The notes under the pieces were generated by a model that was given only the letters and a program-made list of their open reading frames with translations, had not been told where the DNA came from and made no database searches. Source: Candidatus Zixiibacteriota bacterium (GTDB lineage: Bacteria; Zixibacteria; MSB-5A5; GN15; FEB-12). From it: 64,000 nucleotides of DNA. The DNA lies in assembly GCA_022571845.1 (NCBI GenBank), contig JACZXB010000001.1, positions 459,037-523,036 of the forward strand. Reading direction: 5' to 3'. Positions 7,639-38,502 of the stretch are shown here, piece by piece. Numbering within the stretch: the stretch's first letter is position 1; every line of letters begins with the position of its first letter. Both the position numbers and the translations under genes were made by a program.

Positions 7639-10600
7639 CAGAATTGTGCCACCACTTCTGTTCGTCCGGTTATGCGGGCAGTAGTTTTATCTGAGTGACG
7701 CCCGCTCAGCCTCAGATTAATACGCATATCTTTCTTGATGCCATAGTTAAACGCGGCAGTCCACAAAATTCCTCTGCTGCCGAATTTGTTGCCTGTCAGC
7801 TGATATGACGGAGCCAAGTTTACGTTATCAAGGCTCTGGGCGTAAAGTTCCAGAGAAGTTCTTATCTCTCCTTTTTTCATCATTCGGATTTTAATTTTTG
7901 TTTCAATTGAGAAGATTTCTGATTTTTCATTAATGGATGACTGCGCCTTGCGAAATGACAGACCTAGCGCATATTCGTTTGAAGAGGCTAACTTGCGCAG
8001 TGTCAGCGCACTTTTGAAACCGTCGATATCTCCGCTGCCTATGAAATAATTATCGCGGTTGCTGCGGAACAATTTTATTTCCTCGACGAAAAAATAATCC
8101 TTTAAGGTTTGCTTCAGAGAAAGAGTCCCGTCAAAATCGCGCCTGATTCTGTCGACACCCGCGATATTTCTAATTTCGATTCTCTGCTTGAGACTAATAT
8201 TGATCACATGGCCGCTTTTTATTTGTATAAGGCGGATGTCGCTGCTGTGGCGACGGTTGTAGACCAGATAAGGCTGAGCGTCGTCTGAATAAAAAGGCAG
8301 AAACCACCAGAATGTGCGTTGACCGTTTTCCAGTAATTCTTCTTCGACTACGCTGTTCAGCTGAATTTGAGCAAACGACCAACTCTTGCTTAAGTGAAAA
8401 CTCTTTTCACCCCGGCGTACTTTTGACTTTTCAGACAGGATTTCCTCCGTCTGAATAAAGTTACCGTCCGGGTCAGGCAGGTAGCGGCCGTTTTCGAAGA
8501 TATACTTGCCCTGGCCGGGTGCAACCTCCAGATAAGTAATACCCCGGGCGTTCCTGGTTTCTTCCGAAAGTGTATAAGAAGAACTTATACTGAGCCTCTT
8601 TTTATTATTAGTGTAGCGCCAGTCGGCTCTCGACAAAAACGACTCCTCTCTGGCGTTTTCCCGGGAGAGCCATTGATAGCCAAGATAAACATTATAATTA
8701 AGGCGGCCGATTGTCCGCCCGGATGACCCAATCAGACGGTTTCTGGTCATCAGCTGCGACCAGCCGTTAGTTAAAGAATCTTCGGTATAATACTCGACTG
8801 TTACTTTTTCTTTGCTGTTTAAGAGCGTGGCAGCGTACCTGTCGTATTTCAAGCCTTGTGGAGCGACATTGTAATCGTTGTTTCTGCTGTCATGCTCATA
8901 TCTTGCCTGAAATTTCAGTTTTCGTATTATAGGAATTTCTAAGTTACTGATATAGCTTTGTGAATTACCGGCGGAGATTGTGCCGTCGGTTAATCTTGAT
9001 TTCGTAGCTCTTATGAGAAAGCTCCCCGATAGCAGATTTTCAAATTCGATATCAGTTTTGACCGTGATTTTATTGGCAGAGAAGTTGTTATCATAATTGA
9101 GTCTTCCATAAGATGGTGACAGTTTTAAAAAACTAAATGGCGAGAGCGTTGCATTGGTTTCTATTAATCTTTCATCACTGTCCGCCTTAAACGCTTTTGG
9201 CAATAAGTAATGACGGCCGAAATCTGCTGGGTTGATTCTTGAATCTGAAGAATATGCAGCCTCTTTGAAACGGGCCGTGACAGACAGATTGTTCTCCTGT
9301 CCGTTCCAGTTAAAAGTCTTTCTGGAGCGGAGATTCGCCAGTAGTCCTTCGTTGTCAGAATCGTCAAGCGCAGAAAACTGATTCTTGTCGTAGCGTGAAA
9401 AGTTTATTTCGGCCTGTACCTCGCCGACAATTCTGTTTTGCAGGCCCAGACTGGCAGAGTAATAATTTTTTTGCTCTGGTGCGGACAGCTTTACTACTGG
9501 CAGATACTCCCCCTTGCCACTGCCGGCATATTGGTACTGCTCTCCCCCGACAAATAGATAATCCCCTTGTCCTGCGCCAACATACGAAAAGGAAATTTTA
9601 TAGTCGCCGTTGCCCTGACCTGCAAATTGGTAAAGGCTATCCGGTAAACTGTCTGTTACCAGCAGGTAACTTCCGGCGCTGTCCAATAAGACCCCAGACC
9701 TAAAAGCGTTTTCAATATTGTCACCAACCGCAGAGAGCAGTTGTAAGTCAGAGTTTGATAGTTCTCCTGTTTGAGGCTGGTCTTTGGAGTCACCTTCGCG
9801 ATACCATTCTACGGCAAAATTAAAAACAGAGTCGCCATATTGGTAGCTGCTGGCGGCGCTGAAGAGCTCTGTTTTATAGGCTGTTAGCAGCGGTTCATAG
9901 TCAATTTCTATTCTGCTGCGACTGTCTATTTGATTTTTGACTGAAAATGTAATTCTTCCGCTGGCATAATCCATGGTGTAATCTTTGTCCGCACCCCTGC
10001 TAAGTTTTCGTCCGTCCAGCCAGATGTTTTCTGAATTTGGCACGATCGACGATGCGCTCTTGCTTGCTCCAATTTGATAGGGACCCTGAACGCCGTCCAG
10101 TCCGTTAAATGTCTCTGTCTGAAATCTTCCTTTGGGCCGACCTGCAACAGCGCTATAACTGAAGTTGCCAGTTTTCAGGTCTGCGGCAACCCCCGACAGT
10201 TGTTTATTCATCCACTGAGATTTACGAAATCCTCGACTAATTTGAATATCACCAATCTGCGCCAGAAAAGACCGGGACTCGAGCCTGAGATTTATCTTAT
10301 CCAGTTCCTCAAGGCGGCTGTTGGCCGTACCGTACGAGGGATTAAAGCCGCGGTCAGATATTGAACCTGATATTGTTAAGTTTTCTGTTAAGTCCCCGGC
10401 TATGTTCAAATCCAGCGATTGACCAAATTCTGAAACCCCGGCCGACTGCGTAGAGAACCGGAAAGTCTTGGCGCCGGAGATATTTATATCACTTAACTTC
10501 GCAGCCGAAGAAACGCTGCGATTATTAAACACACTCTCCGGTTTTGCTCTTGATAAAAGCGGCTGTATCTCCGGCGGCTGCTGGCCGAATGATTTTGCCA

Positions 10601-10931
10601 GCCAGAGCGGTGCCTGTCGGTATCTGATGACTAAAGTGTCAGTAGAGCTAAGTCGGATTTTTGAAAGATCCAGGCTTTGGGTTTGTCTGTTAAATTTATA
10701 ATCTTCGTTTCTGGTGAGTAGTCTGCCGTTTAAGAAAAGCGAGTCAGATTCTGAAAATATCAATCCTGTCATAAAACTATTTGATTGTTCGGTCGCAGCT
10801 GTAACGATTCTTTCAATCTGAGCCGCAAAAGACGAAACTGGTTTTAGAATTGTGCAAAATATTACTAGAGAACATGCTAAATTATTTAACAGATTCCTGA
10901 ATCCGGGGCTGTGGCAAAATCTGAACCGCAT
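7638..10931 (-). CDS. Very large predicted outer-membrane beta-barrel protein, family not recognised
   Basis: The 1097-aa product has a signal peptide ending SSFAAQ, alternating beta-strand-like Y/R/N/S-rich sequence throughout, and a terminal aromatic (..VVAQF). Confidence 0.5.
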   Translation of the reverse strand: MRFRFCHSPGFRNLLNNLACSLVIFCTILKPVSSFAAQIERIVTAATEQSNSFMTGLIFSESDSLFLNGRLLTRNEDYKFNRQTQSLDLSKIRLSSTDTLVIRYRQAPLWLAKSFGQQPPEIQPLLSRAKPESVFNNRSVSSAAKLSDINISGAKTFRFSTQSAGVSEFGQSLDLNIAGDLTENLTISGSISDRGFNPSYGTANSRLEELDKINLRLESRSFLAQIGDIQISRGFRKSQWMNKQLSGVAADLKTGNFSYSAVAGRPKGRFQTETFNGLDGVQGPYQIGASKSASSIVPNSENIWLDGRKLSRGADKDYTMDYASGRITFSVKNQIDSRSRIEIDYEPLLTAYKTELFSAASSYQYGDSVFNFAVEWYREGDSKDQPQTGELSNSDLQLLSAVGDNIENAFRSGVLLDSAGSYLLVTDSLPDSLYQFAGQGNGDYKISFSYVGAGQGDYLFVGGEQYQYAGSGKGEYLPVVKLSAPEQKNYYSASLGLQNRIVGEVQAEINFSRYDKNQFSALDDSDNEGLLANLRSRKTFNWNGQENNLSVTARFKEAAYSSDSRINPADFGRHYLLPKAFKADSDERLIETNATLSPFSFLKLSPSYGRLNYDNNFSANKITVKTDIEFENLLSGSFLIRATKSRLTDGTISAGNSQSYISNLEIPIIRKLKFQARYEHDSRNNDYNVAPQGLKYDRYAATLLNSKEKVTVEYYTEDSLTNGWSQLMTRNRLIGSSGRTIGRLNYNVYLGYQWLSRENAREESFLSRADWRYTNNKKRLSISSSYTLSEETRNARGITYLEVAPGQGKYIFENGRYLPDPDGNFIQTEEILSEKSKVRRGEKSFHLSKSWSFAQIQLNSVVEEELLENGQRTFWWFLPFYSDDAQPYLVYNRRHSSDIRLIQIKSGHVINISLKQRIEIRNIAGVDRIRRDFDGTLSLKQTLKDYFFVEEIKLFRSNRDNYFIGSGDIDGFKSALTLRKLASSNEYALGLSFRKAQSSINEKSEIFSIETKIKIRMMKKGEIRTSLELYAQSLDNVNLAPSYQLTGNKFGSRGILWTAAFNYGIKKDMRINLRLSGRHSDKTTARITGRTEVVAQF

Positions 10932-10937
10932 AGCATT

Positions 10938-11903
10938 CTATTTCGCTTCCCCTTTTACGATTCGACATATCAGGAGCCGGTTGTTGCCGGTGTCGACAAT
11001 CACCAGTCTGTCATTTTCAAGCAGTGCGATATCGGACGGCTGCTTCAGCGACAGATTTGTCCCCGGTAGATTTGGCCCGAATGAAGACAATATTTTGCCA
11101 TTTTTTGATACAGAAAACAGTTTGGAATCTCCGCCATCAAGAACCCAAAGCATATCATCCGCTATGACTATAGAGATTGGATAATTTATCTGATTAAAGG
11201 CGTAGGTCCGGAGGTGCGAGCCGAATTCATCATAGACAACAATCCTGCTGTGTCCGGCGTCACAGACAAAAAAATTACCGGCATCATCTTTGACGATTTT
11301 TTCAGGGCTTAACATCTGCCCTCCGGACGAACCGAAATCACCAATGAATCTGTCAAATTTGCTGATATTATCGAAGACACACACTCTGTTTTTTTCATTG
11401 TCTGCAATCCATATTTCGCCGTACGAAGTAATGCCGATCCCAGAAGGATAACCAAACTTGAACGGGTCTTCTTCATCTTCGAACCTGATTTCATCTACAA
11501 AATTCAGCCGCGCATCAAACCTTGCCACCCGGCGGTTGCCTTCATCAGCTACAAACAAATTTAAGCCGTTGTCCATAACTACAAATGACGGTCGGTTAAA
11601 TAGCTCGGTGCCGTGTCCATAACCCCCGATTTGTTTTTCCGGATTCATCTCTGAATCGAACTTGACAACCCGGTTGTTGCCTCTGTCTACAATAAAGACA
11701 GCACCGTCTCTGCCTATAGTAATTCCTGTAGGTTCTTTAAAAGTCTGGCCCAGAATTAGGCCATTTATCTCCCTTTCTACAAAGAGAAAGATGTTATTAG
11801 AAACCTCAGTTGAACTTGATTCCTCTGCCAAAGCAGCTGTTTTTTTACAAGATGTGAATGACAGGGCAGTTATTAATAAAATGCTTATAGTAGAGCTATA
11901 CAC
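10938..11903 (-). CDS. NHL-repeat beta-propeller lipoprotein
   Basis: A lipobox-like LSFTSC is followed by six repeats of the type AVFIVDRGNNRVVKFD, LFVADEGNRRVARFD, IWIADNEKNRVCVFD and LVIVDTGNNRLLI. Confidence 0.8.
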   Translation of the reverse strand: MYSSTISILLITALSFTSCKKTAALAEESSSTEVSNNIFLFVEREINGLILGQTFKEPTGITIGRDGAVFIVDRGNNRVVKFDSEMNPEKQIGGYGHGTELFNRPSFVVMDNGLNLFVADEGNRRVARFDARLNFVDEIRFEDEEDPFKFGYPSGIGITSYGEIWIADNEKNRVCVFDNISKFDRFIGDFGSSGGQMLSPEKIVKDDAGNFFVCDAGHSRIVVYDEFGSHLRTYAFNQINYPISIVIADDMLWVLDGGDSKLFSVSKNGKILSSFGPNLPGTNLSLKQPSDIALLENDRLVIVDTGNNRLLICRIVKGEAK

Positions 11904-11914
11904 CGCTTGGGTTC

Positions 11915-12724
11915 CTAAAAGCGGGCGACCAGGGCGAAACTGACGGGCTTGTTGTTACTGAACGGATGTATTTCTAATCTGTACTTGATTTTGCCAACCA
12001 GGGAAAAGTCGGCCTCTTTTATTTCGCTGTTGGTCCTTTTTGCATCACGGACTGCATCAATGATAGATACAATTCTGTTAACAACAGCCAATCCAACCAG
12101 GAAATTTGCACGGCGGAACGCCTCGCGACTGCTGTTTTTCAAACGCCGATAATTGGCTCTGTCGTCATCGGACTGCCAGCGCCAGTGGTTTACAGAATTG
12201 TCAACCAGATAGGGCCTGTCCTGATCCTGAACCCGCCCGAGTGAGTTGTACTGGTCAATATCATCGTAGAACCCGACCCAGTCCTGAAACTCCTGGCTCT
12301 TCCCCTCAAGATTTGCATCAGCGTACTCACTCGCGAAACTAATCAGGTCGTCTTCTTTCCAGTTACCGTAAATTCTATAAGACAGAAAACCAATCCAGGC
12401 AGTAGCTTCTACCGCAAAAAACACTCTGGCTTTGTGGCGGTTGCCGACATAGTATTCGCCCAAACCCGGCAGCAGCGCCGAATAAAAGGCTGCTTTAACG
12501 ATTGATATTTTCTCGGTGTTGTCAGATACTCGTTGCGAATTAATTTCATTATCAAATTCATCAAGACTCGCAAATATTTGTTCATTATAAAAACTGTTAA
12601 TGTTGCTTGCCAATTGATCCTGAAGAGGGGTTCTTTTAAGTTCAATTGCCTCTGCTGCTGAAGTTGTTATAACTGACGCCAGAACAGATATCAGAACTAC
12701 TATTATGCTTATCTTAGTCTGCAT
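11915..12724 (-). CDS. Exported protein with a PGLGxYY motif (DUF5683-like), paralog of the upstream gene
   Basis: It has a signal peptide and SALLPGLGEYYVGNRHKARVFFAVEATAWIGFL. It ends ..FALVARF. Confidence 0.45.
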   Translation of the reverse strand: MQTKISIIVVLISVLASVITTSAAEAIELKRTPLQDQLASNINSFYNEQIFASLDEFDNEINSQRVSDNTEKISIVKAAFYSALLPGLGEYYVGNRHKARVFFAVEATAWIGFLSYRIYGNWKEDDLISFASEYADANLEGKSQEFQDWVGFYDDIDQYNSLGRVQDQDRPYLVDNSVNHWRWQSDDDRANYRRLKNSSREAFRRANFLVGLAVVNRIVSIIDAVRDAKRTNSEIKEADFSLVGKIKYRLEIHPFSNNKPVSFALVARF

Positions 12725-12727
12725 AAA

Positions 12728-13642
12728 TTAAAACTTATAGCCTACGCTAAGATAGGGTGTATCTCTCCAGCCATAGGTGGACTTGATGTTGGTTTCGACA
12801 TTTAGCCTTGAGAATTCCGGGTCATAGCTACTACTTTCATTTCTTTTCTTGGTCGAAAGAAATGCTTCTACCGCCGAAATCAAGTGATTTGCAAAAACCA
12901 TCATCAGCATTTTGTTCGCTTTATCAAATTTCTTATTAGCATCATTGCGCATTGTTTCATAGGAGAGCCTGTTGACAGAAGTAGGTACGGTTGAGTCACC
13001 GATAACTGTTGGAGGAAAAGATGCATCCCAGTCTTTGTACTTTAGACTGTCAAGTTCGGCGTCATCCCAACCCCATGAAAACTGGTCATATTTGCCGGTC
13101 ATTTCATAATATTGCTGAGTGCGCGTATCAGGCAGATGATGGCTGGCCTCTGGCGCCTTCACAGAGTCGTCATCCGTGAAGCCATAGGCGTGAAAGAGAT
13201 ATTCTTCGTAAACTGTTTCTGACCAATGGTCACGGTTAAACTTTTCAAATTCGGCAGTTAGATCTGTTCCCTCGGAGTTCCATTTACCACGCATCAGCCA
13301 GGCGAAAGCTTCTACTCCCAAAAACGCCACCGGTTTAATTCTGCTGCCATAGTAATATTGTCCCAATCCCGGTAGAGCCAGTGACAATAGAAATGCCTTT
13401 GAGGGCGATTTGTAGCCGCTCTTTGAAACGTTTCGGGAACTATTGTCATCTGAGTTAAATTCAACCTGGGCATAAAACAAATTCTTGTCATCAGACAGTG
13501 CCAAAGCGTAACTGTATTTAATTTTTTGAAGTTCCTGATCAAAACTATTTTGCTCAGATGGCTTGGCGATAGCACTGGCTGCTGTAATCGGAAGCAAGCA
13601 ACCAATCAAAGACGCGACCAAAATCTGATTTATTCTATTCAT
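12728..13642 (-). CDS. Exported protein with a PGLGxYY motif (DUF5683-like), paralog of the downstream gene
   Basis: It has a signal peptide and SLALPGLGQYYYGSRIKPVAFLGVEAFAWL. It ends ..SVGYKF. Confidence 0.45.
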   Translation of the reverse strand: MNRINQILVASLIGCLLPITAASAIAKPSEQNSFDQELQKIKYSYALALSDDKNLFYAQVEFNSDDNSSRNVSKSGYKSPSKAFLLSLALPGLGQYYYGSRIKPVAFLGVEAFAWLMRGKWNSEGTDLTAEFEKFNRDHWSETVYEEYLFHAYGFTDDDSVKAPEASHHLPDTRTQQYYEMTGKYDQFSWGWDDAELDSLKYKDWDASFPPTVIGDSTVPTSVNRLSYETMRNDANKKFDKANKMLMMVFANHLISAVEAFLSTKKRNESSSYDPEFSRLNVETNIKSTYGWRDTPYLSVGYKF

Positions 13643-13664
13643 TCAACCTCTCATTTACCAGCTG

Positions 13665-16600
13665 TTAGCGCAATACAGCTATATCCGTAAAGGCAGTTTC
13701 TATGGAACCGCCGAAATCTACTTCCATTACACAGCGATAGACACCGGGCGTTACATTGCTACAGTTCCAGATAATTTCATTATCAATTCCGCCGGTCACA
13801 TCGCCGCTCATTACTGCAACTTCGACTCCCGACAAATCAAATATCTTAAACGAGACAGAACTGGCATCCTGCCCCAGATAATACCTGATGGTGGTTTGTC
13901 CATCAAGAACCGGATTAGGATAATTATAATATCTTTCCTTTGGCAAGCTGGCTGACTGCGGCTTTGGCGACGGCAGGATAGTCTGATTGAAAACATAAGT
14001 GCCCTCGGGGTCGCTGCCGCCCATTGGCCAGAAATTTCTGGTGCTGTCTGCAGCGACATCCCAGAGATAGAACCAGCCATCGGCGCCTAAATATCCAAGT
14101 TTTCCAGTCAAACCATTTGAAACATAAACCGGCGAGCCGGCACCTATTTCTCCTGCAGAAAGCGGAAAGCCAAATGATGCCTGTTCAGCAAAAGAATAAA
14201 TATTCCCCGTCAATGTAGGAAAGATAATCTCGGACTGTCCGCCTGCTTCAATATTTGCCATTATCGGCGCTGCTATTACTTCGTCTGTCGGAAATCTATC
14301 CGATGGCTCATATGGAAAATCAGTCAATAATCTTAGTTCGCGGTTAAAGGCGTAGATAGCATTTTGCCCGCCGATTATTATATCCGGGTAGCCGTCGAGA
14401 TCGACATCTCCAACTATCGGGTTTGTTGTAAACCTAAATCCGGTTTGGCTTCTTTCCAGAACTATACCAATTCCTGTCAATAGTCCATCTATGCTTAACA
14501 GTACTCCGTCGCCTTCAGGCGTAAACACAGCCACTTCCATGTCACCGTTTAGGTCAAAATCGGCGACAACCGGACCAAGTGAATAATAGCCGTTCAGAGA
14601 GATTGCTCTTGAAATTACGGTATCGGTATAATACAATTTTGTTTCCTGACCATTGCCGGCTAACAAAAGCAAAGCATTGTTTAATTGGGCGATACCGTGA
14701 TATTCATCGTTAGAGAACATTGCAACGGTTCTTAACCCGCCGGAGAGGAAATCTTTGCGCTGAATTGTGCCGTTATCGGTAAGTATCCAGAGAAATCTCC
14801 CAAACGACAGAGCTATCGGTACTCCCGAAGTTCTGTCAAGACTGGCTTCGGCGATCCCGTTTGTATCTGCATCATCTAACTTGTAAACTCGAACGTAATG
14901 CAGCCCGGTAATGTCCCTGACTCCTATCGCAATGAATTTGTTGGAATCAGCCATTCCAAAATCACCTGTGACCGGACTGGTGGTAATCGTATCTCCAAAA
15001 GTATGTGCATATAGCGGCAGAACGTGCGCCACTCCGGGAGAAACTGAGGAAAAGGCGCTGTCTTCAAATATCGGACAGGTTGTGCAGCCGGTATATTGTC
15101 TCAAAAAGTTTTGTCCGTCGAGCGTTATAACGTTTAGATTTGTGCCTGAGGCTACAATCAATTCCGGTGTGCCGTCGCGGTCAAGGTCATCGACAATCGG
15201 GTTTAAGCCAAAGACCGGGTAGCCTGCTCGTACTGGAAAACCTGCGGAACGACCATCGATTTCCAAATTAGCAGTGATAACTGAGTCGTAGTAGATTAAA
15301 CCCTGCGCTGTTGTTGCTGAATCGCGACTTATTTCTGTAAGCCGCACACGGCTGTTATTGCCGGAATTATCTATCGACGGCGGATTCGTGTTGGGAGTAA
15401 AAGAATTGTTACGGTCATCGCGGTACATATCTTCCTCGCGCCCATAGCCTGCCTGGTAATAGCCGCCAAAATTTACAATGCCGTCGGCCTCGACCAATCT
15501 GATAAATCTTCTATTCGGATCACGCTGAAGGTCGTTGTCATCAAAATTATTCTGGCCGTCATTATCATAGTCAAGGGCGGCGACACCTTCATCGATATGG
15601 AATATCAATAGACCTGAGCCGGGCATCAGATTGTCGTACTCGCCGGTAAAATTTTTCTGCAAATCAACCGGGTATTGAAAAACCGAAGTCGCCGAGTCTG
15701 CCAGGAGAGCCGTTTCTTTACCGTCGGTGTCGACCAGTCTGTTTTCTAGTAAATAGTATTCGTTTTCAGAGATTGGAATGCGGGCGATCTTGATTCCATT
15801 TGAGATTACTTCGGCTGCGACTATTCTTAAATCGGCATTCTGCCTGTAATCGACAACTTCGACAAACCCAAGATGCGCGCGAGACCAGGCCATAGGATAT
15901 AATGGAATAGCGCCAAAAATCTGGCCGACCGTGAATCCAAAATCAAGACCTGTTCCAAAACCGTTGTTATCCATAAGCGCAAAGTCACCAAGCTGAGTCA
16001 GGAAGTTCCCGGTATTATACAAATCTACTAAACCGAGTTGATGACCGAACTCGTGGGCGATTACGGCGTTTAGCGCCGTACCGCGGTTATCCTGACTGGC
16101 TGTTTCGGGCAGCATCAAGGCATTTTGAACAAAAGCTGTGTTATTGTCAACCGGTATGGTTGAACCAAACGAAATGAAGCCGGTAAACAGGTCGCTGCAT
16201 GTCTCAGGAAAGCCAATATCGTTCTGGCGGTCAGAGCCGGCATGAAACAAAAATACTGATTGGTAGTTGGAGAACACTATCTCCGGGCTAACCGTATCGG
16301 CCAGTTGAATGCAATCTATAAAATAATTCTCCAGTCCGGTTATGACCGAATCAAAATCGCATCTGCCGTAATAATTCATGGGCTGCGGCAAGGTATAGAG
16401 GCTGTCTTTGGCAGGCGGGAAAATATCCCAGGAGAGAGTAAGTTTCCCTTCGGAAACCGTTTCATAATATTTCCGAAGCGCTCTTAGATGGGCATCAAAA
16501 TATAAAGAATCACGAGGCGGCGGGTCTGCCAGATGACCGACCATGTCATAATATGCTACCGAGTCAGCCGCATTTTCAAACGGGTCATCCAGAATCATCC

Positions 16601-16919
16601 TGCCTCTTCCGGTAGTGTTGGGATCATCGATGGTTTCGTACTGAAAATTGAACCTGAGCACCAGGATGTTAATAGTTTGCAGAAAATCTGCAGCCAGGGC
16701 TTGTTCGGGCAATGACCATTTGTCCTTTCGTTTCAGCCCAAGGTCTATAATATATTCTACGTCGGGCGTCAGGCACTGCTGGCGAACCTTGTTTTCTCCA
16801 GATACCTCAACCTTTTCTTTTCTAAACTGCAAAACTTTCCCGGTGTCCGAGCTTGAAGCTGCGGCACACAGAGAAAGTACTACAACAAATGCTATGCTAA
16901 TCGTTGGTCGTCTGATAAT
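13665..16919 (-). CDS. M6 (immune inhibitor A-like) metalloprotease with FG-GAP/VCBS-like repeats and a T9SS-type C-terminal sorting domain
   Basis: The zinc motif AHEFGHQLGLVDLY is encoded at 16041-16055 for HEFGH. Repeats include DLDRDGTPELIV and DVDLDGYPDIIIGG. The CTD reads YNYPNPV..GVYRCVMEV..DIAVLR. I extended the start to ATT 16919 to include the signal peptide (see findings). The track ORF starts at TTG 16832. Confidence 0.8.
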   Translation of the reverse strand: MIRRPTISIAFVVVLSLCAAASSSDTGKVLQFRKEKVEVSGENKVRQQCLTPDVEYIIDLGLKRKDKWSLPEQALAADFLQTINILVLRFNFQYETIDDPNTTGRGRMILDDPFENAADSVAYYDMVGHLADPPPRDSLYFDAHLRALRKYYETVSEGKLTLSWDIFPPAKDSLYTLPQPMNYYGRCDFDSVITGLENYFIDCIQLADTVSPEIVFSNYQSVFLFHAGSDRQNDIGFPETCSDLFTGFISFGSTIPVDNNTAFVQNALMLPETASQDNRGTALNAVIAHEFGHQLGLVDLYNTGNFLTQLGDFALMDNNGFGTGLDFGFTVGQIFGAIPLYPMAWSRAHLGFVEVVDYRQNADLRIVAAEVISNGIKIARIPISENEYYLLENRLVDTDGKETALLADSATSVFQYPVDLQKNFTGEYDNLMPGSGLLIFHIDEGVAALDYDNDGQNNFDDNDLQRDPNRRFIRLVEADGIVNFGGYYQAGYGREEDMYRDDRNNSFTPNTNPPSIDNSGNNSRVRLTEISRDSATTAQGLIYYDSVITANLEIDGRSAGFPVRAGYPVFGLNPIVDDLDRDGTPELIVASGTNLNVITLDGQNFLRQYTGCTTCPIFEDSAFSSVSPGVAHVLPLYAHTFGDTITTSPVTGDFGMADSNKFIAIGVRDITGLHYVRVYKLDDADTNGIAEASLDRTSGVPIALSFGRFLWILTDNGTIQRKDFLSGGLRTVAMFSNDEYHGIAQLNNALLLLAGNGQETKLYYTDTVISRAISLNGYYSLGPVVADFDLNGDMEVAVFTPEGDGVLLSIDGLLTGIGIVLERSQTGFRFTTNPIVGDVDLDGYPDIIIGGQNAIYAFNRELRLLTDFPYEPSDRFPTDEVIAAPIMANIEAGGQSEIIFPTLTGNIYSFAEQASFGFPLSAGEIGAGSPVYVSNGLTGKLGYLGADGWFYLWDVAADSTRNFWPMGGSDPEGTYVFNQTILPSPKPQSASLPKERYYNYPNPVLDGQTTIRYYLGQDASSVSFKIFDLSGVEVAVMSGDVTGGIDNEIIWNCSNVTPGVYRCVMEVDFGGSIETAFTDIAVLR

Positions 16920-16940
16920 TCACGCCTCGGTCAACAATTT

Positions 16941-19763
16941 CTACAGTCCCATTGAGAAAGAATATCTAAGTGTATTTGACAACGCCGAGGAACTGTTGCT
17001 GGGAATGTATGAAAAATCAATACTGGTGTTAGGAAGCGGCTTTAGTCCTGCACCAAGGGTCAGACTCTTGACTTTACCTTCCTGGTCATAAATATAACCG
17101 CTTCTTATGGCAAAAATTCCAGCATACATAAATTCGGCGCCACCGTTAAAAACGGTCTCTTCAAGTTCCTGGCCAAGGTTTTTCAAATCGACACCTACCA
17201 GCAATTTATTCATTTCGGCGGTAATCAAAAAGCTATAATACTCACTTTGGATCAGCTTGTAGGCAAAACCTAATCCCAAATTCCTGGGAAGAGGATCTGA
17301 CTGATTAGCATCAATATAGGCCATCTGAGGACCAAGATTGGTGACTGCTAAACCTAATGTCAACCTGGAATTCATATGGTACATAAGCCCCAGGTCAATG
17401 GCAAATCCGCTTGATGTCCCTTTACCCTGTTCAATTCCGGCACCCTGTGGGGAAAGTTTGGAATAGATAAATTTGCCTGTAACCCCGAATGCCATTTTTT
17501 GAGTCAACGGAGCGCCGAATGATGCCGAAACTGCGAAATCAAATGAATCAAATTCACCAATAACAGTCGGACTTCCTTCGGTTCTGGCGAATTTTCCATA
17601 AGATATATAAGAGACACCGATTCCCAACGTTCCCCATCCTGCCACTGGGGTCACAGCCGAACCATACATATAGTACAAGTCATCAGCAAGTTCCGGCAGC
17701 CATTTGACATACATCACTGAAAAATCACTCTTGCCGTTTGCTTTGACGACAATTTTATTATCACTGGCAACCCAGAGCTCTTCACCAATTGAGCGAATGT
17801 CAATGGCGTTGGACCTGTCCATTCCTCTTAAGTTAGAGCGACGCCATTTTTCACCATCATAATCAATAAGCCCGTCTGATGTTGCAAAATACACTTTATT
17901 ATCACGACGGCTAATTTCGTTTACGGGGGAAGCAGCCGGGTTCTTAGGGAGTTTAACAATTGAACCGGATTCTACCATGTCTCCATCGATGCCGTTTACA
18001 ACAGCAAAGTTCGCTGCAGACATTTTGTAGGACGACTGGGCAGACTTGGATTCGATCAAAGCAGTGATAGATATTGCGCTGTCTATCCTGTTATTGCTGT
18101 AGCCGGGCATATTCCATTTGCCGCCATCAAAATAAACTACACCATATTCTGTACCGAGCCAGATATTGCCACGCTCTACCAGTATAGCGTTGACATCCCC
18201 TTTTACTTCGGCCAGATATGGTACCCGAATCTTTTCACCCGGCTTCAGAGAAAACGCCGGCTCTGGCACGGCTTCGATCTGCTCATCATTAGCAGCTACT
18301 GCGACAAATGTATCCTCGGTCGAGGCCATAGCTTCAGATCCATCGCTTGTCAGCTCTACTGCAACACCAGCAACACCGGCAGAATCTACTGACTCTTCTT
18401 CGGTCTGAATACTGTCTGGAGGAGCGTTCATCTCCCGCATAAGCTCAAGCAAACCTTTTCGTTCACCAAGCTCTTCGAATTTCTTTGATGCAACTGCCTG
18501 CCCTTGATTAGCTTCAATAAGTTTTGCAATATACATTTCATTTTCAGATGCAGTACCGTAAACACTGAACTTTTCGGCAATAGATTCAGGAGTGTCATCA
18601 ATTACCACAGTATATTCTCTGGTGTTGCGCCAGTTTACACCATTAAAATGATACAAATCATTATTTTGAACAATCCAGATATCACTAAAATCTGTTCCAC
18701 CGATTGCTGTCACATTGCCCGAGGGCAGCTGCTCACTTTTAACAACCGGCTTAAGCTTTGCACCTGAAAACTGCATCAAACCTTTATCTGTACCAACCAG
18801 AATATATCTGTCCATGCCATAGAGCGTATTAACAGTCGTAAAAGCAGCAGTGTCGTCGGCTTTCTGCAGCGGACGCCAGCGGCGGCCATCAAAAGCATAG
18901 ATATTTGCGGTGGTGGCAACCAGCAGAAGTTCTGTCGAAGCTGCGATATCAAATGGTTCTCCGTCCAGTACTGCCGAATAAGGTATACTTATCTCTTCCG
19001 GGATAAACCTGTTGCGCGATTTCTCTACGGCAAAACTCAGGCGATCCAGTTCCTGTTCAGAAAGCTGGCCATCTTTCATGCCTTTCTTAAAATTATCATC
19101 AATCTCTTTCACTTTTGACCAGTTTATCAATAGCCGGTCATAAACAGCTAACAGGCTGTCAAAATCATTCTGTAGTCTTTCACGAAACTTGTAACTTTCC
19201 GGTGCCGAAGCCAGCACAGAATCATGAAGGTTCTGCAAATACTCAAAAGTTTTTTTACTATTTATTGCTGCTACCTTCTTTACTATCTGGTCAAATTGTT
19301 CTCCGTCGGAAATATTGAAATAGCTTCTCACCTTGGAAACCAGCGTCTCATCTGTACGAGTTGAAAAAACTTCACCCAGATTCCAGTTTTTGTTATCGTA
19401 GCGCACCATTCCTTTGGGAGAAATAGCCCAGATATCATATGCTAAGTGACCGCTGCCGCCGCCTTCTTTCTTGAGAGCAGCCAGAGCTTTGATCGGCCTC
19501 AAATGAAAAGGTATGCTGGCTTCTTTCCAGGAATCGGCCAGAGGGTAACTTCCCAGCCCGGCCGGGTTCCAGTGGGTGGCCGTGGCATCATCGGCGATTG
19601 CCACATATGATTCGCCCAGAGCAGCCGGACGTGCACCGGGGGCAATGCGCAGAAACAGTACCGCTGCGTTTGATATTTCGGCTTTGGTTTCGCTCACGAT
19701 CACTATGGACAGGCAAAACGTCATCGCTAAAGTTAACATGATAAGTAATTTGAGTGGTTTCAT
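16941..19763 (-). CDS. porV: PorV-like outer-membrane barrel protein carrying a roughly 600-aa propeller-like insertion
   Basis: The N-terminal PorV signature AAVLFLRIAPGARPAALGESYVAIADDATATHWNPAGLG lies at about 19555-19672. The C-terminal 250 aa look like barrel strands (GFAIDLGLMY, LGLAVTNLGP, GGAEFMY, IRSGYIY, LRYSFSMGL). I chose the ATG at 19763 with GGAGA upstream. The track uses TTG 19775. Confidence 0.7.
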   Translation of the reverse strand: MKPLKLLIMLTLAMTFCLSIVIVSETKAEISNAAVLFLRIAPGARPAALGESYVAIADDATATHWNPAGLGSYPLADSWKEASIPFHLRPIKALAALKKEGGGSGHLAYDIWAISPKGMVRYDNKNWNLGEVFSTRTDETLVSKVRSYFNISDGEQFDQIVKKVAAINSKKTFEYLQNLHDSVLASAPESYKFRERLQNDFDSLLAVYDRLLINWSKVKEIDDNFKKGMKDGQLSEQELDRLSFAVEKSRNRFIPEEISIPYSAVLDGEPFDIAASTELLLVATTANIYAFDGRRWRPLQKADDTAAFTTVNTLYGMDRYILVGTDKGLMQFSGAKLKPVVKSEQLPSGNVTAIGGTDFSDIWIVQNNDLYHFNGVNWRNTREYTVVIDDTPESIAEKFSVYGTASENEMYIAKLIEANQGQAVASKKFEELGERKGLLELMREMNAPPDSIQTEEESVDSAGVAGVAVELTSDGSEAMASTEDTFVAVAANDEQIEAVPEPAFSLKPGEKIRVPYLAEVKGDVNAILVERGNIWLGTEYGVVYFDGGKWNMPGYSNNRIDSAISITALIESKSAQSSYKMSAANFAVVNGIDGDMVESGSIVKLPKNPAASPVNEISRRDNKVYFATSDGLIDYDGEKWRRSNLRGMDRSNAIDIRSIGEELWVASDNKIVVKANGKSDFSVMYVKWLPELADDLYYMYGSAVTPVAGWGTLGIGVSYISYGKFARTEGSPTVIGEFDSFDFAVSASFGAPLTQKMAFGVTGKFIYSKLSPQGAGIEQGKGTSSGFAIDLGLMYHMNSRLTLGLAVTNLGPQMAYIDANQSDPLPRNLGLGFAYKLIQSEYYSFLITAEMNKLLVGVDLKNLGQELEETVFNGGAEFMYAGIFAIRSGYIYDQEGKVKSLTLGAGLKPLPNTSIDFSYIPSNSSSALSNTLRYSFSMGL

Positions 19764-19775
19764 CGAGTTCTCCAA

Positions 19776-22700
19776 TTATTGATTAATAACTACAATTTTT
19801 CCGAATTCTTCAACCGCCTCGCCGATAGCCGGCTGTGCCGTTGCTTTGAAAATATAAACACCGGTTGCTACCCGGTCGCCATAGGCATCGCGCCCGTCCC
19901 AGACTATATCATCATAATAGGCGGCTGCCAGAGCAAAGCGCTGAAAACTATTTATTTTACGGCCTGAGAGAGTAAATATCTCAAGCGTTAATTTTTCCAC
20001 TGTCTGAGTCAAGGAATATGAAAAAATCGTCTTATCTACCATCGGATTGGGATAATTCAGAAGTTGCTGAATCGCGAGGAAAGAACTATTAACAATATCA
20101 ACGGTAAACGATACAGACGATGAATTATTGGCGTTATCCCAGGCTTTTATTTTGATACTATGAAGCCCCGGTTCAAGCTGCTCCAGTGTGTAGGACAATC
20201 TGCCGGTTGTGAAATCATCCTGATCAAAATTGAAAAGGGATGTCAAATTGATTGCCGAAGCTGCCTCGCCGTCAAATTCAATTGAAATTCCATGTCCTAA
20301 TCCGCCGGCTAAGTTTATCCCTGAAGGGTCGGAGAGCTCTATTTCCAGTATGTCCCCCGGACTGACCGAATTACCTGCGGGTATAAATGGCTTACCGGAG
20401 AAACTAAGACTGATATTTGGCCCCGTGCTGTCAGTCGAATTTGCCACTGTTGTGGCAACTGTGATTGAATCAATAATTCCCACAGCATCAATGGCGCCGA
20501 GCACAGCATACATGGAAACTTTTGCACCGCTGCCCCCATAGCCTATATCGAGCGGCGGAATAAAACTAAAATCATAGCTGCCGCCGGTGATTGAGGCAGT
20601 TCCCCGAAAAATTGTCGGACCGGCCGTTTTGTAATCTATTGTCTGTATCACGTTGCCGCTATTATTTACCAGCCTGTAGGTTTTATCTCTCTCAGAATCA
20701 AATACTGTGATCGTCAATTGTCCGTCTGCTGTAATAATATTACCGCCGGCATCTACTACTCTACCACTAATATTGGCCGGTCTTAAGGCCTCCAGAGAAT
20801 CGAGAGTGGAATCAACCGTGACATCGCTAGTTGGAATAGCCAGACGCAAAAAGGGATCACCAAAATACATATAATTGCGGTCATTCAAAACTGGTGACGG
20901 CGGACTAAATGTGGCGTATTGTCTCTTAACTTTGGCAGAATAAACAGCTTCACTCATGGTAAGTGAATCGTCGTACAACATAAAATCAAAGACTTCACGG
21001 TTAAAAGCTGCGTTGTCTGAAGAATAAACCAAACGGGTAGCTGAAATTACCGAGATAGCTCCGGCCTGCATGGCTATAAAATCTTCAGCCATGCCTTCAC
21101 GCTTGGGGTCATCAAAGAAGCCTATCGCGCAGGAAGCTGTAAACACAAGAGGCAATCTGTCGTAGTTGGTCATACGCGGCAGATCGGAAGTTCTTATTAG
21201 TACAAGTTCATGTGCCCAAAGCTCAGGGCTGCCGTGCCCAACATAGTTGAGAATCAGAGTCCCCTGATTAACTGAATTTACAATAGCGTCGTTAACTTCG
21301 GGCTTTGCCCCGTTCAATAGTGGATACTCCCACAAATAAATTTTCTCTTTATTAATATAATTGGGAACATGACTGTTCCCGAGTTCTTCCGATTGAGTCG
21401 TATGAAATGCTTCGTTATCAAAAGTACCAATCTCATCATCGGCGACCAGCGTAATATTAGTCCGCCAGCTTCCAAACGACTGCGGTGATTCGTAGGCGAT
21501 CAGCTTGGAAGTAATATTGGCAATCTCAGAACTTGTCCTGACCGGCCATCTGGAGGGAATCATATCAAAGCCCCTATCACGGGAAATAAAAGTGGTGTCG
21601 TAGGTGGTGTCGCTGTCAATCAGACCATACTCGCCAAAATAAACGTAGTTGTCATCGGACATAGTCTTATCAAACGGCAAGAGGTAGGCCGGTACAAAAT
21701 TCACTACGCCTGTGCCCAGTCTGTCTATGAAATCATAGTTGGCGTCTCCGACGAACAAAACATGCGCGGGCGCCGGTGAGGCGTAATTCTCATAAGCATA
21801 TTTTAAGAAATCTCTTATCGCGGTCGGGTCGTACAGACCAAAAGCAAAGTTATCCATAATGTCGCTTACTATGACAATTTTTATAGAACGTCCCTGAGCG
21901 CTTCGATAGCCGACATAACCGCTTAAAGCAGAAGCCAGTCCGGCTGTCGTTATTATTATCATATCGGTCTGAGAGCCGCTTACATAGAGGTCAGCAGGAG
22001 TTGATTTTGTGAAAGCAAAAGGCTGTCTTATTTCCCCTGTTGCAATTGCAAAAAACCGGTTTGCTGAGCCGGCAGCTAAGTTTGCTTCGAAAGACAATAA
22101 TCCGTTCTGTCTCTCGAAACCTGTTAATTTAAGCGGCTGGCCGGGGTTATCAAGATTATATAGCACGGGCTGAGACGTAAAATTGTCGATAATGTCTATA
22201 CGAACTCTGCCATTGTATGACGCAATAAAGGCATCAATCTTATTTCCTGACGGAGTCAGGAAGGCATCGTAGTCAATTTCCAAATAATCGAAATACGGGT
22301 CAGCTATTATGGCACCCCAGAGAGTCAAATCAAATTGGTTCAATCCGGCAACAAGGTTATTTGCCTGGTAGCTGCAGGAAAACTGATCGCATATCTTTGA
22401 CGATGCTGCCTGCCCATTCACAATCAAATCCATAAAACCAACTGCGTCCAGAATTCCGGTGGTATCGTAGGTGCGACCACCCAGGAATATGTTCGCGGTC
22501 TGGCCTGATACCCGGTCCGAAGTAGACACAAACAGAGTTAGACTATCACCAACAGCCCAGTACCAATTGTAATAATCGTCGGGTGCGCCATCAGAGAAAC
22601 GTCTTAGCAAATTATCCTGCTCTACCCTCAAATAGCGCCGGTAGCTGTTCATGGTATCAATTGCCGTGCCATTGGGGGTGACATCAACAGCAGAAATTCT

Positions 22701-23669
22701 CAGAGGTGATTCCGGAATAGACGATGAGACCGCTAACCAGTAAACATTTCTGTCGGTGTAAGTATTTTTGACATACCTTCCGCCGGCGCTGTCATACTCC
22801 CAGCGATTAACAGATTCACCATAGAATAAAATTCTGTCACCGGCATCAAAGCTGCCGTTGCTGTTGTTATCTTCAATCTCAATTGCTATCTGATCAAATG
22901 TTGGGCGAGGATTTTGAAGCAGCGGGTCAACGTGCCTGCCGCCCCCGTAGTACAAAAACAAATCAGCAGTAGGTATCGACTGCAAAAGCGAACCGGCAGC
23001 AGTCAGATCACTAAAACCCAGATAATAAATTGCATTGCTGTTAATTTCTATTTTATACCACTCGGCCGCATAAGAAAAGGGGGCAGCAATAGAGGCAGCC
23101 TTGGCCAGTAATCTTGGGGCAACAGTCCAGTTGCGACAGACCTGCCAATTAGCTATCGAGTTTGAGAAAATTCTTTCAAAAATTCGGTCATCAGGAGAAT
23201 TTCCTGTCTCAGCTCTGGCACCTTCAAAAACAACTTTGATTTCGACATTATTGAAAACAGAACCAGCCGAAACAGGCGAGACAACAACTGTCACAAATTG
23301 TCTGTGGCGCATCTCCCAGTTTTCAGAAAGCCTGGCCAGTGGGGCGACTGCTACAATGCGATTTTGGTCTGAGAGACTCAGCAAACTTTTGCTTATAGAA
23401 ACTTGTCCGCTTCCACTGACAGCTGCAAGTCTGGCGGTGGCGCCATAGGGAACGCCGATCTGAACAGCTCGACTTAAGTATAAAAGGGAATTTTCGCCTA
23501 CAAACTTATTGAGCTTACCCAAGCCGCCATCAAAATGCATCACAAAGTGAAATTCTTCAGAGGTTGAGCTGAGAACTGTTATTTCATTTATCGCAGCCAT
23601 CGAAAGAGAGTATCCCCATAGAATAGCTGGTAAAATAAGAAGTGGAAGTTTGTGAAAAACTTTTTTCAT
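19776..23669 (-). CDS. porU: PorU-like peptidase C25 (gingipain-fold) protein with a T9SS-type C-terminal domain
   Basis: The clan-CD dyad is present. NYVGHGS has its His codon at 21234-21236, and FTASCAIGFF has its Cys codon at 21129-21131. The CTD reads LLNYPNPM..GVYIFKA..KIVVINQ. It lies directly upstream of the PorV-like gene with no gap. Confidence 0.75.
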   Translation of the reverse strand: MKKVFHKLPLLILPAILWGYSLSMAAINEITVLSSTSEEFHFVMHFDGGLGKLNKFVGENSLLYLSRAVQIGVPYGATARLAAVSGSGQVSISKSLLSLSDQNRIVAVAPLARLSENWEMRHRQFVTVVVSPVSAGSVFNNVEIKVVFEGARAETGNSPDDRIFERIFSNSIANWQVCRNWTVAPRLLAKAASIAAPFSYAAEWYKIEINSNAIYYLGFSDLTAAGSLLQSIPTADLFLYYGGGRHVDPLLQNPRPTFDQIAIEIEDNNSNGSFDAGDRILFYGESVNRWEYDSAGGRYVKNTYTDRNVYWLAVSSSIPESPLRISAVDVTPNGTAIDTMNSYRRYLRVEQDNLLRRFSDGAPDDYYNWYWAVGDSLTLFVSTSDRVSGQTANIFLGGRTYDTTGILDAVGFMDLIVNGQAASSKICDQFSCSYQANNLVAGLNQFDLTLWGAIIADPYFDYLEIDYDAFLTPSGNKIDAFIASYNGRVRIDIIDNFTSQPVLYNLDNPGQPLKLTGFERQNGLLSFEANLAAGSANRFFAIATGEIRQPFAFTKSTPADLYVSGSQTDMIIITTAGLASALSGYVGYRSAQGRSIKIVIVSDIMDNFAFGLYDPTAIRDFLKYAYENYASPAPAHVLFVGDANYDFIDRLGTGVVNFVPAYLLPFDKTMSDDNYVYFGEYGLIDSDTTYDTTFISRDRGFDMIPSRWPVRTSSEIANITSKLIAYESPQSFGSWRTNITLVADDEIGTFDNEAFHTTQSEELGNSHVPNYINKEKIYLWEYPLLNGAKPEVNDAIVNSVNQGTLILNYVGHGSPELWAHELVLIRTSDLPRMTNYDRLPLVFTASCAIGFFDDPKREGMAEDFIAMQAGAISVISATRLVYSSDNAAFNREVFDFMLYDDSLTMSEAVYSAKVKRQYATFSPPSPVLNDRNYMYFGDPFLRLAIPTSDVTVDSTLDSLEALRPANISGRVVDAGGNIITADGQLTITVFDSERDKTYRLVNNSGNVIQTIDYKTAGPTIFRGTASITGGSYDFSFIPPLDIGYGGSGAKVSMYAVLGAIDAVGIIDSITVATTVANSTDSTGPNISLSFSGKPFIPAGNSVSPGDILEIELSDPSGINLAGGLGHGISIEFDGEAASAINLTSLFNFDQDDFTTGRLSYTLEQLEPGLHSIKIKAWDNANNSSSVSFTVDIVNSSFLAIQQLLNYPNPMVDKTIFSYSLTQTVEKLTLEIFTLSGRKINSFQRFALAAAYYDDIVWDGRDAYGDRVATGVYIFKATAQPAIGEAVEEFGKIVVINQ

Positions 23670-24077
23670 CAACCAGGCATAATTCCCGGCCAGGAAGCTT
23701 GCAGATATAAATCTACAGTTTCAGGGCCTTTTAGGCGTTTAATTTCAATCCAGCTCTATTTGAGCCATTTACACCAAAAAACACATTAACTGTAGAACTA
23801 TATATTTTCTCCTGTTTGCATTTTATAAACCGCTGTAATGTAGCAAGTTCCCTTAATTAAGTCAATATCATTGCAGGGTTTATTGTAATCTATCTATAGC
23901 AATACATCGGCCAATTATGCCTGACCTTTAGGATGTCATAATTAAGTACCTGTATTGCAACAACTTAGGTGCATTTGTGACAAAGGGGAAACACCGGCAA
24001 TATCTGCGATTCTTGAGAAAAAAGGCAGATTTTATGACAACCGTTGCACAAAAAGGAAGTCTAAAAGCACCGCCAGT

Positions 24078-24665
24078 TCAATTGTTGTAGGAACTCAGCC
24101 TGCGGTCAAGTTCCCCGCTTAATTGGTGCATTCTTCGCTCTGTATCTATTAGGACCTCCTCGTAAGTCTCAACATTATTATTTGGATAAAAGACGGCGCT
24201 ATGGCAATCGTAGTAGGCCCGGGCGAGCTGGTCGAAGAGATCCATAGTGCTCTGGTCATAATGCCTGCTATCACGAACGAGCCTTAGACCATATTCAAGG
24301 TTATCTTCGTAAGCTTTCAGAATTGGCTTTTCGGCGACCACCCAGCTGTTGACTACTTCGCGCATTTCGGAGGCATCCACCGGTTGCCCCCGGCCCTCGT
24401 TACCCTGCTGCCATTGGTCGACTATCTGGAAGCCGTAGCGGATGTACATCGCTGAAACCGAATCGATATGAGTTTTGACCAGCCCGGCCATTGTCGTCGG
24501 CGGTTTATTTCTTAGCTCTTCTGCCCAATTTGAGCGAATCCTGCCGGCACGTTGCTGGTTTGACTCGGTGGCTTCATCGACAGTTTGACCTGTTTCAATT
24601 TTCAGTCCGCAGGACGAAACCGCCAGCAAGAAACTCACCAAAATCAGAGCATATGATAATTTCAC
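24078..24665 (-). CDS. Lipoprotein, unknown function
   Basis: The signal plus lipobox reads LLAVSSC. It lies 5 nt downstream of the lyase gene. Confidence 0.6.
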   Translation of the reverse strand: MKLSYALILVSFLLAVSSCGLKIETGQTVDEATESNQQRAGRIRSNWAEELRNKPPTTMAGLVKTHIDSVSAMYIRYGFQIVDQWQQGNEGRGQPVDASEMREVVNSWVVAEKPILKAYEDNLEYGLRLVRDSRHYDQSTMDLFDQLARAYYDCHSAVFYPNNNVETYEEVLIDTERRMHQLSGELDRRLSSYNN

Positions 24666-37248: not shown

Positions 37249-37275
37249 TTACTTAGCCTCTTTCAACCTGCACAA

Positions 37276-38373: not shown

Positions 38374-38502
38374 ATTTAAACGGTTTAATCGGCTCTTTGG
38401 ATACTTACTATTTATCGGTAAAAAACGAAGGTTCCTTGAGTTTTATTTGTAGAATCAGGGCTGTAAGTTGCTGAAAGACAAAGCCCTACAATAGCGATAT
38501 TT

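Follow-up and report, generated by a model that had tools for sequence, protein, structure and literature searches.

In the Bacteroidota type IX secretion system (T9SS), PorV has been described as a mobile outer-membrane carrier that takes cargo from the SprA/Sov translocon to the PorU sortase, and whether it truly acts as a shuttle, or is handed over at a station fixed to the ring, is debated (PMC12365241). The barrels of PorV and its relatives have 14 strands and belong to the FadL family (PMC9143113). Here we report on a PorV-family protein of 940 amino acids (aa), referred to as long PorV, that is encoded in a 64,000-nucleotide (nt) stretch of DNA from a Candidatus Zixiibacteriota bacterium (contig JACZXB010000001.1; the window), and in which a module of ~600 aa stands between the conserved N-terminal segment and the first barrel strand. 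The module consists of a seven-bladed propeller that holds three LysM-derived modules, and we consider it rather probable that long PorV is the Zixibacterial PorV and that its insert, in the periplasm, tethers or positions the PorV-PorU unit. While the PorV, Reg_prop and LysM parts are known, their combination is, as far as we have found, new, as are the insertion at the junction between hatch and barrel and a propeller that harbours three nested LysM-derived modules.

The closest described proteins are the Bacteroidota PorVs, i.e., those of Flavobacterium johnsoniae (6H3I and 8GL6, chain F) and Porphyromonas gingivalis. Long PorV shares with these the 14-strand FadL-family barrel, the N-terminal WNPA segment, the conserved L1 loop aligned to PorV N87, and a gene position beside porU, but it differs in length (940 vs about 400 aa), in phylum (Zixibacteria), in having no counterpart of PorV residues 260-314 and in scoring under the PorV equivalog cutoff. 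With respect to function the nearest parallel would be the PorE-PorP pair of P. gingivalis, where PorE, which has TPR, WD40 propeller, CRD and OmpA_C-like domains, binds PorP and peptidoglycan, and where the pair is a proposed cell-wall anchor of the T9SS (PMC12773672, PMC9143113, PMC7463736). A 14-strand FadL-type barrel (PorP) and a propeller with a peptidoglycan-binding domain on the periplasmic side (PorE) are common to both cases; in P. gingivalis, however, they belong to two proteins instead of one chain, and in long PorV the propeller is of the Reg_prop type with LysM-like modules, while the barrel is PorV-like and not PorP-like. The likeness of the insert to PorE would be functional only: Pfam and NCBIfam scans of the window protein gave no TPR or OmpA_C match and its signal peptide is of the signal peptidase I type, so that it does not qualify as a PorE.

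Other known proteins share single parts with long PorV. The Bacteroides hybrid two-component sensors BT4663 (4A2L) and BT4673 (3OTT/3VA6) have a seven-bladed periplasmic propeller of the Reg_prop type, and BT4663 is, according to its PDB entry title, a glycan sensor (heparin/heparan sulphate). These sensors carry two tandem propellers followed by Y_Y_Y, a transmembrane helix and kinase/regulator domains, whereas long PorV has a single propeller with LysM modules embedded in an outer-membrane protein. FadL, TodX and TbuX share the 14-strand barrel fold, and the NPA motif of their N-terminal hatch has a counterpart in the hatch-like segment of long PorV; a role of long PorV in the transport of hydrophobic substrates finds no support. 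The extra periplasmic domain of Treponema FadL-like proteins is a small C-terminal helical bundle, in contrast to the 600-aa insertion after the hatch seen here. Finally, intimin and invasin have an outer-membrane β-barrel preceded by a periplasmic LysM that binds peptidoglycan, but their barrel is a 12-strand inverse autotransporter barrel with a single LysM and no propeller, and they are unrelated to the T9SS.

To our knowledge, the T9SS has barely been studied outside the Bacteroidota. We found no paper describing the long-PorV architecture, and literature searches combining PorV or T9SS with Zixibacteria, PorV with LysM, as well as searches on PorV2/PorU2, returned nothing relevant. The original prediction, made from the letters of the window, had named already described homologs as a reason to abandon it; homologs turned out to be very common, but they are annotated generically.

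Long PorV is encoded by a single unbroken open reading frame (ORF; 16941..19775, minus strand). A Shine-Dalgarno-like site, GGAGAA, lies 5 nt 5' of ATG 19763, which is therefore the likelier start; the alternative TTG 19775, which would give 944 aa, overlaps the GGAGAA site. Residues are numbered from ATG 19763 and the features of the protein are as follows:

16941..19763, minus strand: long PorV gene, 940 aa from ATG 19763, with the stop codon at 16941-16943.
19680..19763, minus strand: signal peptide, aa 1-28, of the signal peptidase I type by reading of the sequence, with SETKA before and EIS after the predicted cleavage site.
19533..19679, minus strand: N-terminal PorV/FadL-type hatch-like segment, aa 29-77, with AIADDA-x5-NPA, aligning to PorV 29-64.
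17727..19532, minus strand: inserted module, aa 78-679, a seven-bladed Reg_prop-type propeller with three LysM-derived modules (from DSSP, PDB profile search and Foldseek).
Propeller blades: I, aa 93-134; II, 270-298; III, 311-339; IV, 351-385; V, 524-559; VI, 614-642; VII, 653-675, closed by strand 78-83.
18978..19376, minus strand: LysM-derived module 1, aa 130-262, off blade I (hhalign against module 2 and DSSP helices).
18213..18623, minus strand: LysM module 2, aa 381-517, off blade IV (Pfam LysM PF01476), split by the acidic linker.
18258..18500, minus strand: acidic, disordered low-complexity linker, aa 422-502, within the α2-β2 loop of module 2.
17940..18101, minus strand: LysM-derived module 3, aa 555-608, off blade V, degenerate in the window protein (β-α-α-β by DSSP).
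16944..17726, minus strand: complete 14-strand PorV/FadL-type barrel, aa 680-940 (DSSP on two models, Foldseek and PorV alignment).

In the structure model the signal peptide forms a helix (aa 2-24), and cleavage after SETKA would agree with the end of the family consensus, where an A is followed by DISNAAV. The sequence elements on which the original prediction was built were all recovered: the PorV signature FLRIAPGARPAALGESYVAIADDATATHWNPAGLG at aa 37-71 (nt 19551-19655, predicted at about 19555-19672), the repeat motifs IWIVQNNDLYHFNGVNWRN (aa 362-380), IWLGTEYGVVYFDGGKWNM (aa 534-552) and VYFATSDGLIDYDGEKWRR (aa 624-642), and LWVASDNKIVV at aa 663-673. Its outline of a PorV-family protein with some 600 aa between the N-terminal signature and the barrel also holds, the insert being aa 78-679.

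Searches with the PorV models gave scores above cutoff for the NCBIfam PorV/PorQ family (NF033709; 233.7 bits, cutoff 90, in two stretches) and for Pfam PorV (PF19572; 72.4 bits, cutoff 27), and the PorV/PorQ family models matched all 54 of the 54 relatives that make up our family profile. Searching the PDB with phmmer, F. johnsoniae PorV (402 aa) was the only significant relative of the window protein (E 2e-18), with an alignment in three pieces:

Query aa 3-69 aligned with F. johnsoniae PorV 3-64.
Query aa 679-857 aligned with F. johnsoniae PorV 72-259.
Query aa 863-937 aligned with F. johnsoniae PorV 315-392.

Since the three pieces are collinear, ~610 residues stand in place of ~7 residues of a canonical PorV. 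The PorV match was strengthened to E 1e-47 when the family profile was run against the PDB. Two AlphaFold models, one of the window protein (AlphaFold2, 114 homologs, mean predicted local distance difference test (pLDDT) score 81.4, predicted template modelling score 0.76) and one of the relative P0115 (862 aa, 45% identical, pLDDT 85.6), were also compared with the PDB using Foldseek. For both, PorV 8gl6_F and 6h3i_F were the top matches (E 5e-18 to 1e-13, template modelling (TM) score ~0.6), with E values of 5e-18 and 1e-17 and TM scores of 0.59-0.60 against 8gl6_F, while FadL, TodX and TbuX matched at E about 1e-7, in all cases on the C-terminal part. The size of the protein, 940 aa with a ~600-aa insert, is outside that of single-domain PorV proper (about 330-400 aa), and with 402 aa in F. 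johnsoniae PorV and 326-367 positions in the NCBIfam PorV-type models we agree with the original prediction that canonical PorVs have no such insert. As to the segment missing in the alignment, F. johnsoniae PorV 260-314 (~55 aa, the extracellular loop of strands 9/10) is represented here by only 5 residues (aa 858-862, ~17178-17192), and the cargo-side surface is hence trimmed compared with the solved PorV.

The barrel is complete without the N-terminus. DSSP assigned 14 β-strands, the number in FadL and PorV, to the C-terminal 261 aa (aa 680-940) with the same layout in P0115, and no strand to aa 25-77 in either model. The original prediction had the barrel split by the insert and suggested a structure prediction to see whether an N-terminal strand completes it; this was done, and with 14 strands already present in the C-terminal part and none formed by the N-terminal motif, completion by the N-terminus is rejected.

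Instead, the N-terminal segment would correspond to a hatch. The conserved PorV segment ahead of strand 1 (ARAAGLG…WNPA) is present and aligned to PorV 29-64, conservation within the family is highest in it (column identity 0.86-0.91), and when 55 aa of the segment were run against the PDB with phmmer only PorV was matched (E 0.015). The lumen of FadL is plugged by its N-terminal hatch, in which an NPA motif is conserved (PMC8407342). The hatch of E. coli FadL (aa 10-35) could be aligned with identical AIADDA-x5-NPA spacing and a local score of 41, compared with 21.6±4.3 for shuffled sequences (3/2000 reached it); the FadL sequence was checked against F3, N33-P34-A35, D348 and the length of 421 implied by PDB titles. 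Toluene_X (PF03349) matches 4/54 relatives. Since the N-terminal motif aligns to PorV 29-64, precedes strand 1 and matches the FadL hatch, the insert is located at the junction between hatch and strand 1. Within the barrel, the L1 loop (aa 688-695, KWLPELADDLYY), which aligns to the cargo-contacting N87 region of PorV, is the best conserved part. As the extracellular cargo-binding loops are retained and strongly conserved, the roles as cargo carrier and PorU anchor have probably been kept.

Which side of the membrane the insert faces can be approached through the alignment to F. johnsoniae PorV, where residues 193-199 form a periplasmic loop and where N87 and F115 touch the C-terminal domain of the cargo via extracellular loops (PMC10994853). 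In the phmmer alignment PorV 193-199 corresponds to the strand 6/7 turn (aa 797-800), N87 aligns to D694 in loop L1 (strands 1/2) and F115 to Y722 near loop L2. The lengths of turns and loops in the model of the window protein are in keeping with this topology: turns from an even to an odd strand (S2-S3, S4-S5 etc.) measure 3-5 aa, and loops from an odd to an even strand (S1-S2, S3-S4 etc.) 5-17 aa. Only four residues link the last propeller strand (aa 670-675) to strand 1 (aa 680-687); the link is alike in P0115 (592-597 to 602). The three PorV anchors set the topology and thus provide a strong argument that strand 1 rises from the periplasmic face. With strand 1 starting there, four residues past the propeller, the insert would sit at the periplasmic mouth of the barrel, and we strongly infer that the propeller/LysM module hangs beneath it, in the periplasm. 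A periplasmic, peptidoglycan-facing site, which the LysM modules also fit, is most likely. An extracellular propeller, as originally predicted, is accordingly rejected on topology, and with the insert on the periplasmic side the suggested built-in receptor for cargo or ligand on the surface finds no support.

For the insert itself, DSSP gave seven four-stranded blades in both models with pLDDT mostly >90. The first and last strands of the insert meet in blade VII, beside the barrel, as expected of a domain insertion. The original prediction had likened the repeats to the propellers of two-component regulators and proposed a search with Reg_prop: in the window protein Reg_prop (PF07494) scored 14.9 bits, under its threshold of 20.4, and it matched 22/54 relatives at E <=0.01 (best E 1.4e-12; 46.4 bits in P0174). 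The family profile matched BT4663 (4a2l) at E 6e-24, and BT4673 (3ott, 3va6) together with 3v9f at E about 2e-17, in agreement with Foldseek, which matched the propeller to 3va6, 3ott and 4a2l. A propeller of the Reg_prop type is thus well supported. No family-profile match to PorZ was obtained in the PDB at E <=1, and Pfam/NCBIfam scans of the window protein revealed no Y_Y_Y and no kinase/regulator output domains.

Three extra β-α-α-β modules branch off the propeller, in each case past strand four of the blade (blades I, IV and V). The fold is clean in P0115, which has a short linker and where DSSP gave strand 376-380, helices 387-394 and 400-413 and strand 429-433, as well as strand 474-478, helices 485-489 and 497-510 and strand 524-528, and the equivalent elements are present in the window protein. 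Module 2 scored 21.6 bits with Pfam LysM when intact and 24.9 bits without the linker (model 1-43/43, E 2e-5), with a gathering score of 20.9, and LysM was matched in this module in 16/54 relatives at E 0.01. For module 3, LysM is the sole Pfam family matched in relatives (12/53, best E 1.9e-6), and hhalign aligned modules 2 and 3 with a probability of 97.8% (E 1e-12). Module 1 has a helical insertion of ~80 aa (aa 171-245) in its α2-β2 loop; with this insertion spliced out it aligned to module 2 end to end over 60 columns (hhalign probability 92%, E 6e-7). The acidic low-complexity linker of the original prediction is indeed present, with 23% D+E, pLDDT 32-40 and gap-rich, poorly conserved columns. 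Its length ranges from 0 to 87 aa among the 54 relatives, which argues that it is a lineage-specific expansion.

A full-protein search returned 465 relatives, the best 120 of which were almost all 860-957 aa long and 40-93% identical to the window protein; the best relatives appear in the databases as "PorV/PorQ family protein" from Zixibacteria or FCB-group metagenome-assembled genomes (MAGs). Searching with the insert alone gave 56 cluster representatives at E <1e-30. In nearly all of those with an N-terminus the protein is 850-960 aa long and its insert begins near residue 75, and the remoter matches were ordinary Reg_prop proteins, matched in the blades only. ORFs and gene order were followed in the best 77 of 518 relative-encoding stretches (one genome per GTDB species). 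All 77 are long forms and come from MAGs labelled Zixibacteria, GN15 or similarly, and the architecture is typical of Zixibacteria. PorU is encoded upstream of, and adjacent to, long PorV in 72/77 of these loci (tblastn). Many long-PorV MAGs in identical synteny (L007, L008, L011, L014 and others) are titled "uncultured Ignavibacteriales", an unverified label, and are 40-47% identical to Zixibacteria-labelled MAGs; this would mean that the labels are coarse or wrong, or else that the architecture reaches beyond Zixibacteria. Size variants exist: forms of 750-820 aa (P0174, P0178, P0183 and P0188) are without the helical insertion of module 1, and P0178 is still flanked by PorU and by a protein with FG-GAP and a T9SS tail; in forms of ~1050 aa (P0158, P0159 and P0170) the propeller's first half is partially duplicated; and locus L078 is likewise among the size variants.

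On this basis we propose the following model. Long PorV would be a FadL-family barrel of 14 strands that partners the T9SS sortase PorU in the outer membrane, with a ~600-aa module inserted between barrel strand 1 and its hatch-like segment (AIADDA…NPA). The LysM modules would bind peptidoglycan and the propeller would serve as a platform for binding glycan or protein, and the module would in this way tie PorV, and PorU with it, to the cell wall and/or to periplasmic parts of the T9SS. Long PorV would then do in one chain what PorP and PorE do as a pair in P. gingivalis. The domain identities, the insertion point, the conservation and the synteny are shown by our data. Tethering to peptidoglycan or a partner, and the lower PorV mobility that would follow, is the part of the model that we infer by analogy. 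In F. johnsoniae the periplasmic face of PorV contacts an SkpA helix in the extended translocon (PMC10994853), and the PorV-PorU and PorQ-PorZ barrels of the attachment complex sit above the PorK ring (PMC12365241).

Several of our data weigh against this model. The PorV equivalog model (NF033710) scored 175.2 bits, in three stretches and under the cutoff of 250, a score that we ascribe to the insert and to divergence at the phylum level. Both models give the hatch-like segment a low pLDDT (43-63), which makes its docking in the lumen a prediction, and in hhalign the family profile did not match a single sequence, E. coli FadL, significantly (probability 1%). Periplasmic placement was deduced from topology rules and alignment anchors and not from viewed coordinates or predicted aligned error. 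As to the LysM modules, module 1 has no Pfam match of its own and is linked to LysM by profile-profile comparison alone, module 3 of the window protein scores 13.6 bits, which is below the LysM threshold, and the modules have diverged such that only 12-16 of 53-54 relatives per module pass E 0.01. In classical LysM domains the α2-β2 loop contributes to glycan binding, and because of the insertions in this loop peptidoglycan binding may have been weakened or lost.

A less likely alternative, which we nevertheless take seriously, is that the insert is a periplasmic docking or sensing platform, with the ring, a chaperone, a PorW/SprE-like protein, the cargo or a soluble glycan as partner, and that its LysM modules are structural relics. 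This would account for their degeneration and for the insertions in the ligand-side loop, and the propeller is both the best-conserved and the most confidently modelled part of the insert, its nearest relatives being periplasmic ligand-sensing propellers of hybrid two-component systems; contact of the periplasmic PorV face with SkpA in F. johnsoniae (PMC10994853) also fits. All three LysM-derived modules are, however, retained family-wide, unbroken modules in many relatives score above the Pfam threshold for LysM (best E 5e-10, 6e-6 and 1.9e-6), and no partner has been identified. That the propeller is extracellular and makes the cargo-shuttling barrel a surface receptor for cargo or ligand appears improbable to us. 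Such a receptor might be PorZ-like, PorZ being a surface propeller protein of the attachment complex (PMC12773672, PMC7463736), and a weak match to the PorZ N-terminal propeller family in 2/54 relatives, together with no PorZ or PorQ gene seen in the operon, would be in keeping with this. But the insert precedes strand 1 with a link of only four residues, strand 1 begins, according to three alignment anchors, at the periplasm, and the family profile gave no PorZ match in the PDB at E <=1. LysM on outer-membrane barrels is, in addition, periplasmic in the intimin/invasin precedent.

It is equally doubtful that the protein is no functional PorV and that another barrel of the FadL/PorV superfamily, PorQ- or PorP-like or a channel for hydrophobic substrates, merely lies beside PorU. 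The equivalog score (175 vs 250 bits), partial matches to PorQ, PorV2, DUF5723 and PorP_SprF, and the missing 55-residue segment (F. johnsoniae PorV 260-314) could be read in this way; against it, among the specific models PorV scores best, in the PDB it is the closest match in sequence as well as in fold, porU and porV are adjacent in 72/77 loci, and the L1 loop aligned to N87 is the most conserved part of the barrel. An artefact of assembly, or a frameshift, joining a PorV gene to a separate propeller gene was raised in the original prediction and is the least credible explanation. The ORF is unbroken, PorV-homologous sequence flanks the insert on both sides, assemblies from NCBI, JGI, ENA and Logan contain more than 110 homologs that are collinear over their full length (40-93% identity), ORFs are intact at 64/77 species loci (776-1147 aa, median 915), and the insert family is found almost solely within PorV. 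With the collinear homologs and the independent intact loci an artefact or a one-off fusion is excluded.

Our data suggest that Zixibacterial PorV owes its position to the cell wall or to periplasmic partners beneath it. Tentatively, we extend this to the possibility that throughout the phylum PorV is permanently tethered to the cell wall or the periplasmic machinery by a built-in module of propeller and triple LysM, which would merge two roles that Bacteroidota divide between a FadL-type barrel and PorE. If so, cargo handover to the sortase would need no freely diffusing PorV shuttle, and the family would be a natural experiment on "shuttle versus fixed station". With this family nature provides a test of whether a given PorV function depends on mobility, as well as a candidate analogue of PorE-PorP in a single chain and an unusual case of a LysM-nesting propeller inserted at the hatch/barrel junction of a FadL-family protein.

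Long PorV is part of a set of genes whose order is kept at 10938-24665 on the minus strand, i.e., lipoprotein, PorU, long PorV, M6-like protease, two DUF5683-like proteins and an NHL-repeat protein:

24078-24665, minus strand: small lipoprotein with lipobox LAVSSC, upstream of PorU in 22/77 loci.
19776..23672, minus strand: PorU, the T9SS sortase, 1298 aa, with C25 peptidase and C-terminal sorting domain, in the same operon and 12 nt upstream of long PorV.
13665..16832, minus strand: M6-like metalloprotease, 1055 aa, with FG-GAP repeats and a T9SS C-terminal sorting domain, 108 nt downstream of long PorV.
12728-13642 and 11915-12724, minus strand: two DUF5683-like proteins ending in an aromatic Phe, in 48/77 and 45/77 loci.
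10938-11903, minus strand: NHL-repeat protein following the DUF5683-like pair, in 38/77 loci.

PorU was identified by NF033707 (631.6 bits, cutoff 420) and Peptidase_C25 (E 1e-77). The M6-like protease, found downstream of long PorV in 66/77 loci (tblastn), matched NF052323 at 287 bits (below the cutoff of 600), TIGR03296 and Por_Secre_tail (20.7 bits), and is a likely T9SS cargo. It has an intact HEFGH zinc motif, though its best NCBIfam model is named "T9SS-dependent M6-like inactivated metalloprotease". NCBIfam also holds PorU2 and PorV2 models for what appears to be a parallel triad. No other T9SS core genes were found among the 23 window ORFs scanned with NCBIfam (10 of which were also scanned with Pfam).

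Directly downstream of the conserved operon lies a gene for a 1097-aa protein without Pfam/NCBIfam match (7638-10931, minus strand), followed by an Omp85-superfamily barrel of 546 aa (5998-7638, minus strand). A few kb upstream of the operon there is a REP-associated tyrosine transposase (RAYT; 27364-27867, minus strand; NF047646, 132 bits, cutoff 80). Finally, the window contains a row of type IV pilus genes at 36052-40203 on the minus strand (PilC 36052-37248, PilT 37276-38373 and PilB 38503-40203), which is adjoined by genes for a sensor histidine kinase and a PpiC-type isomerase.

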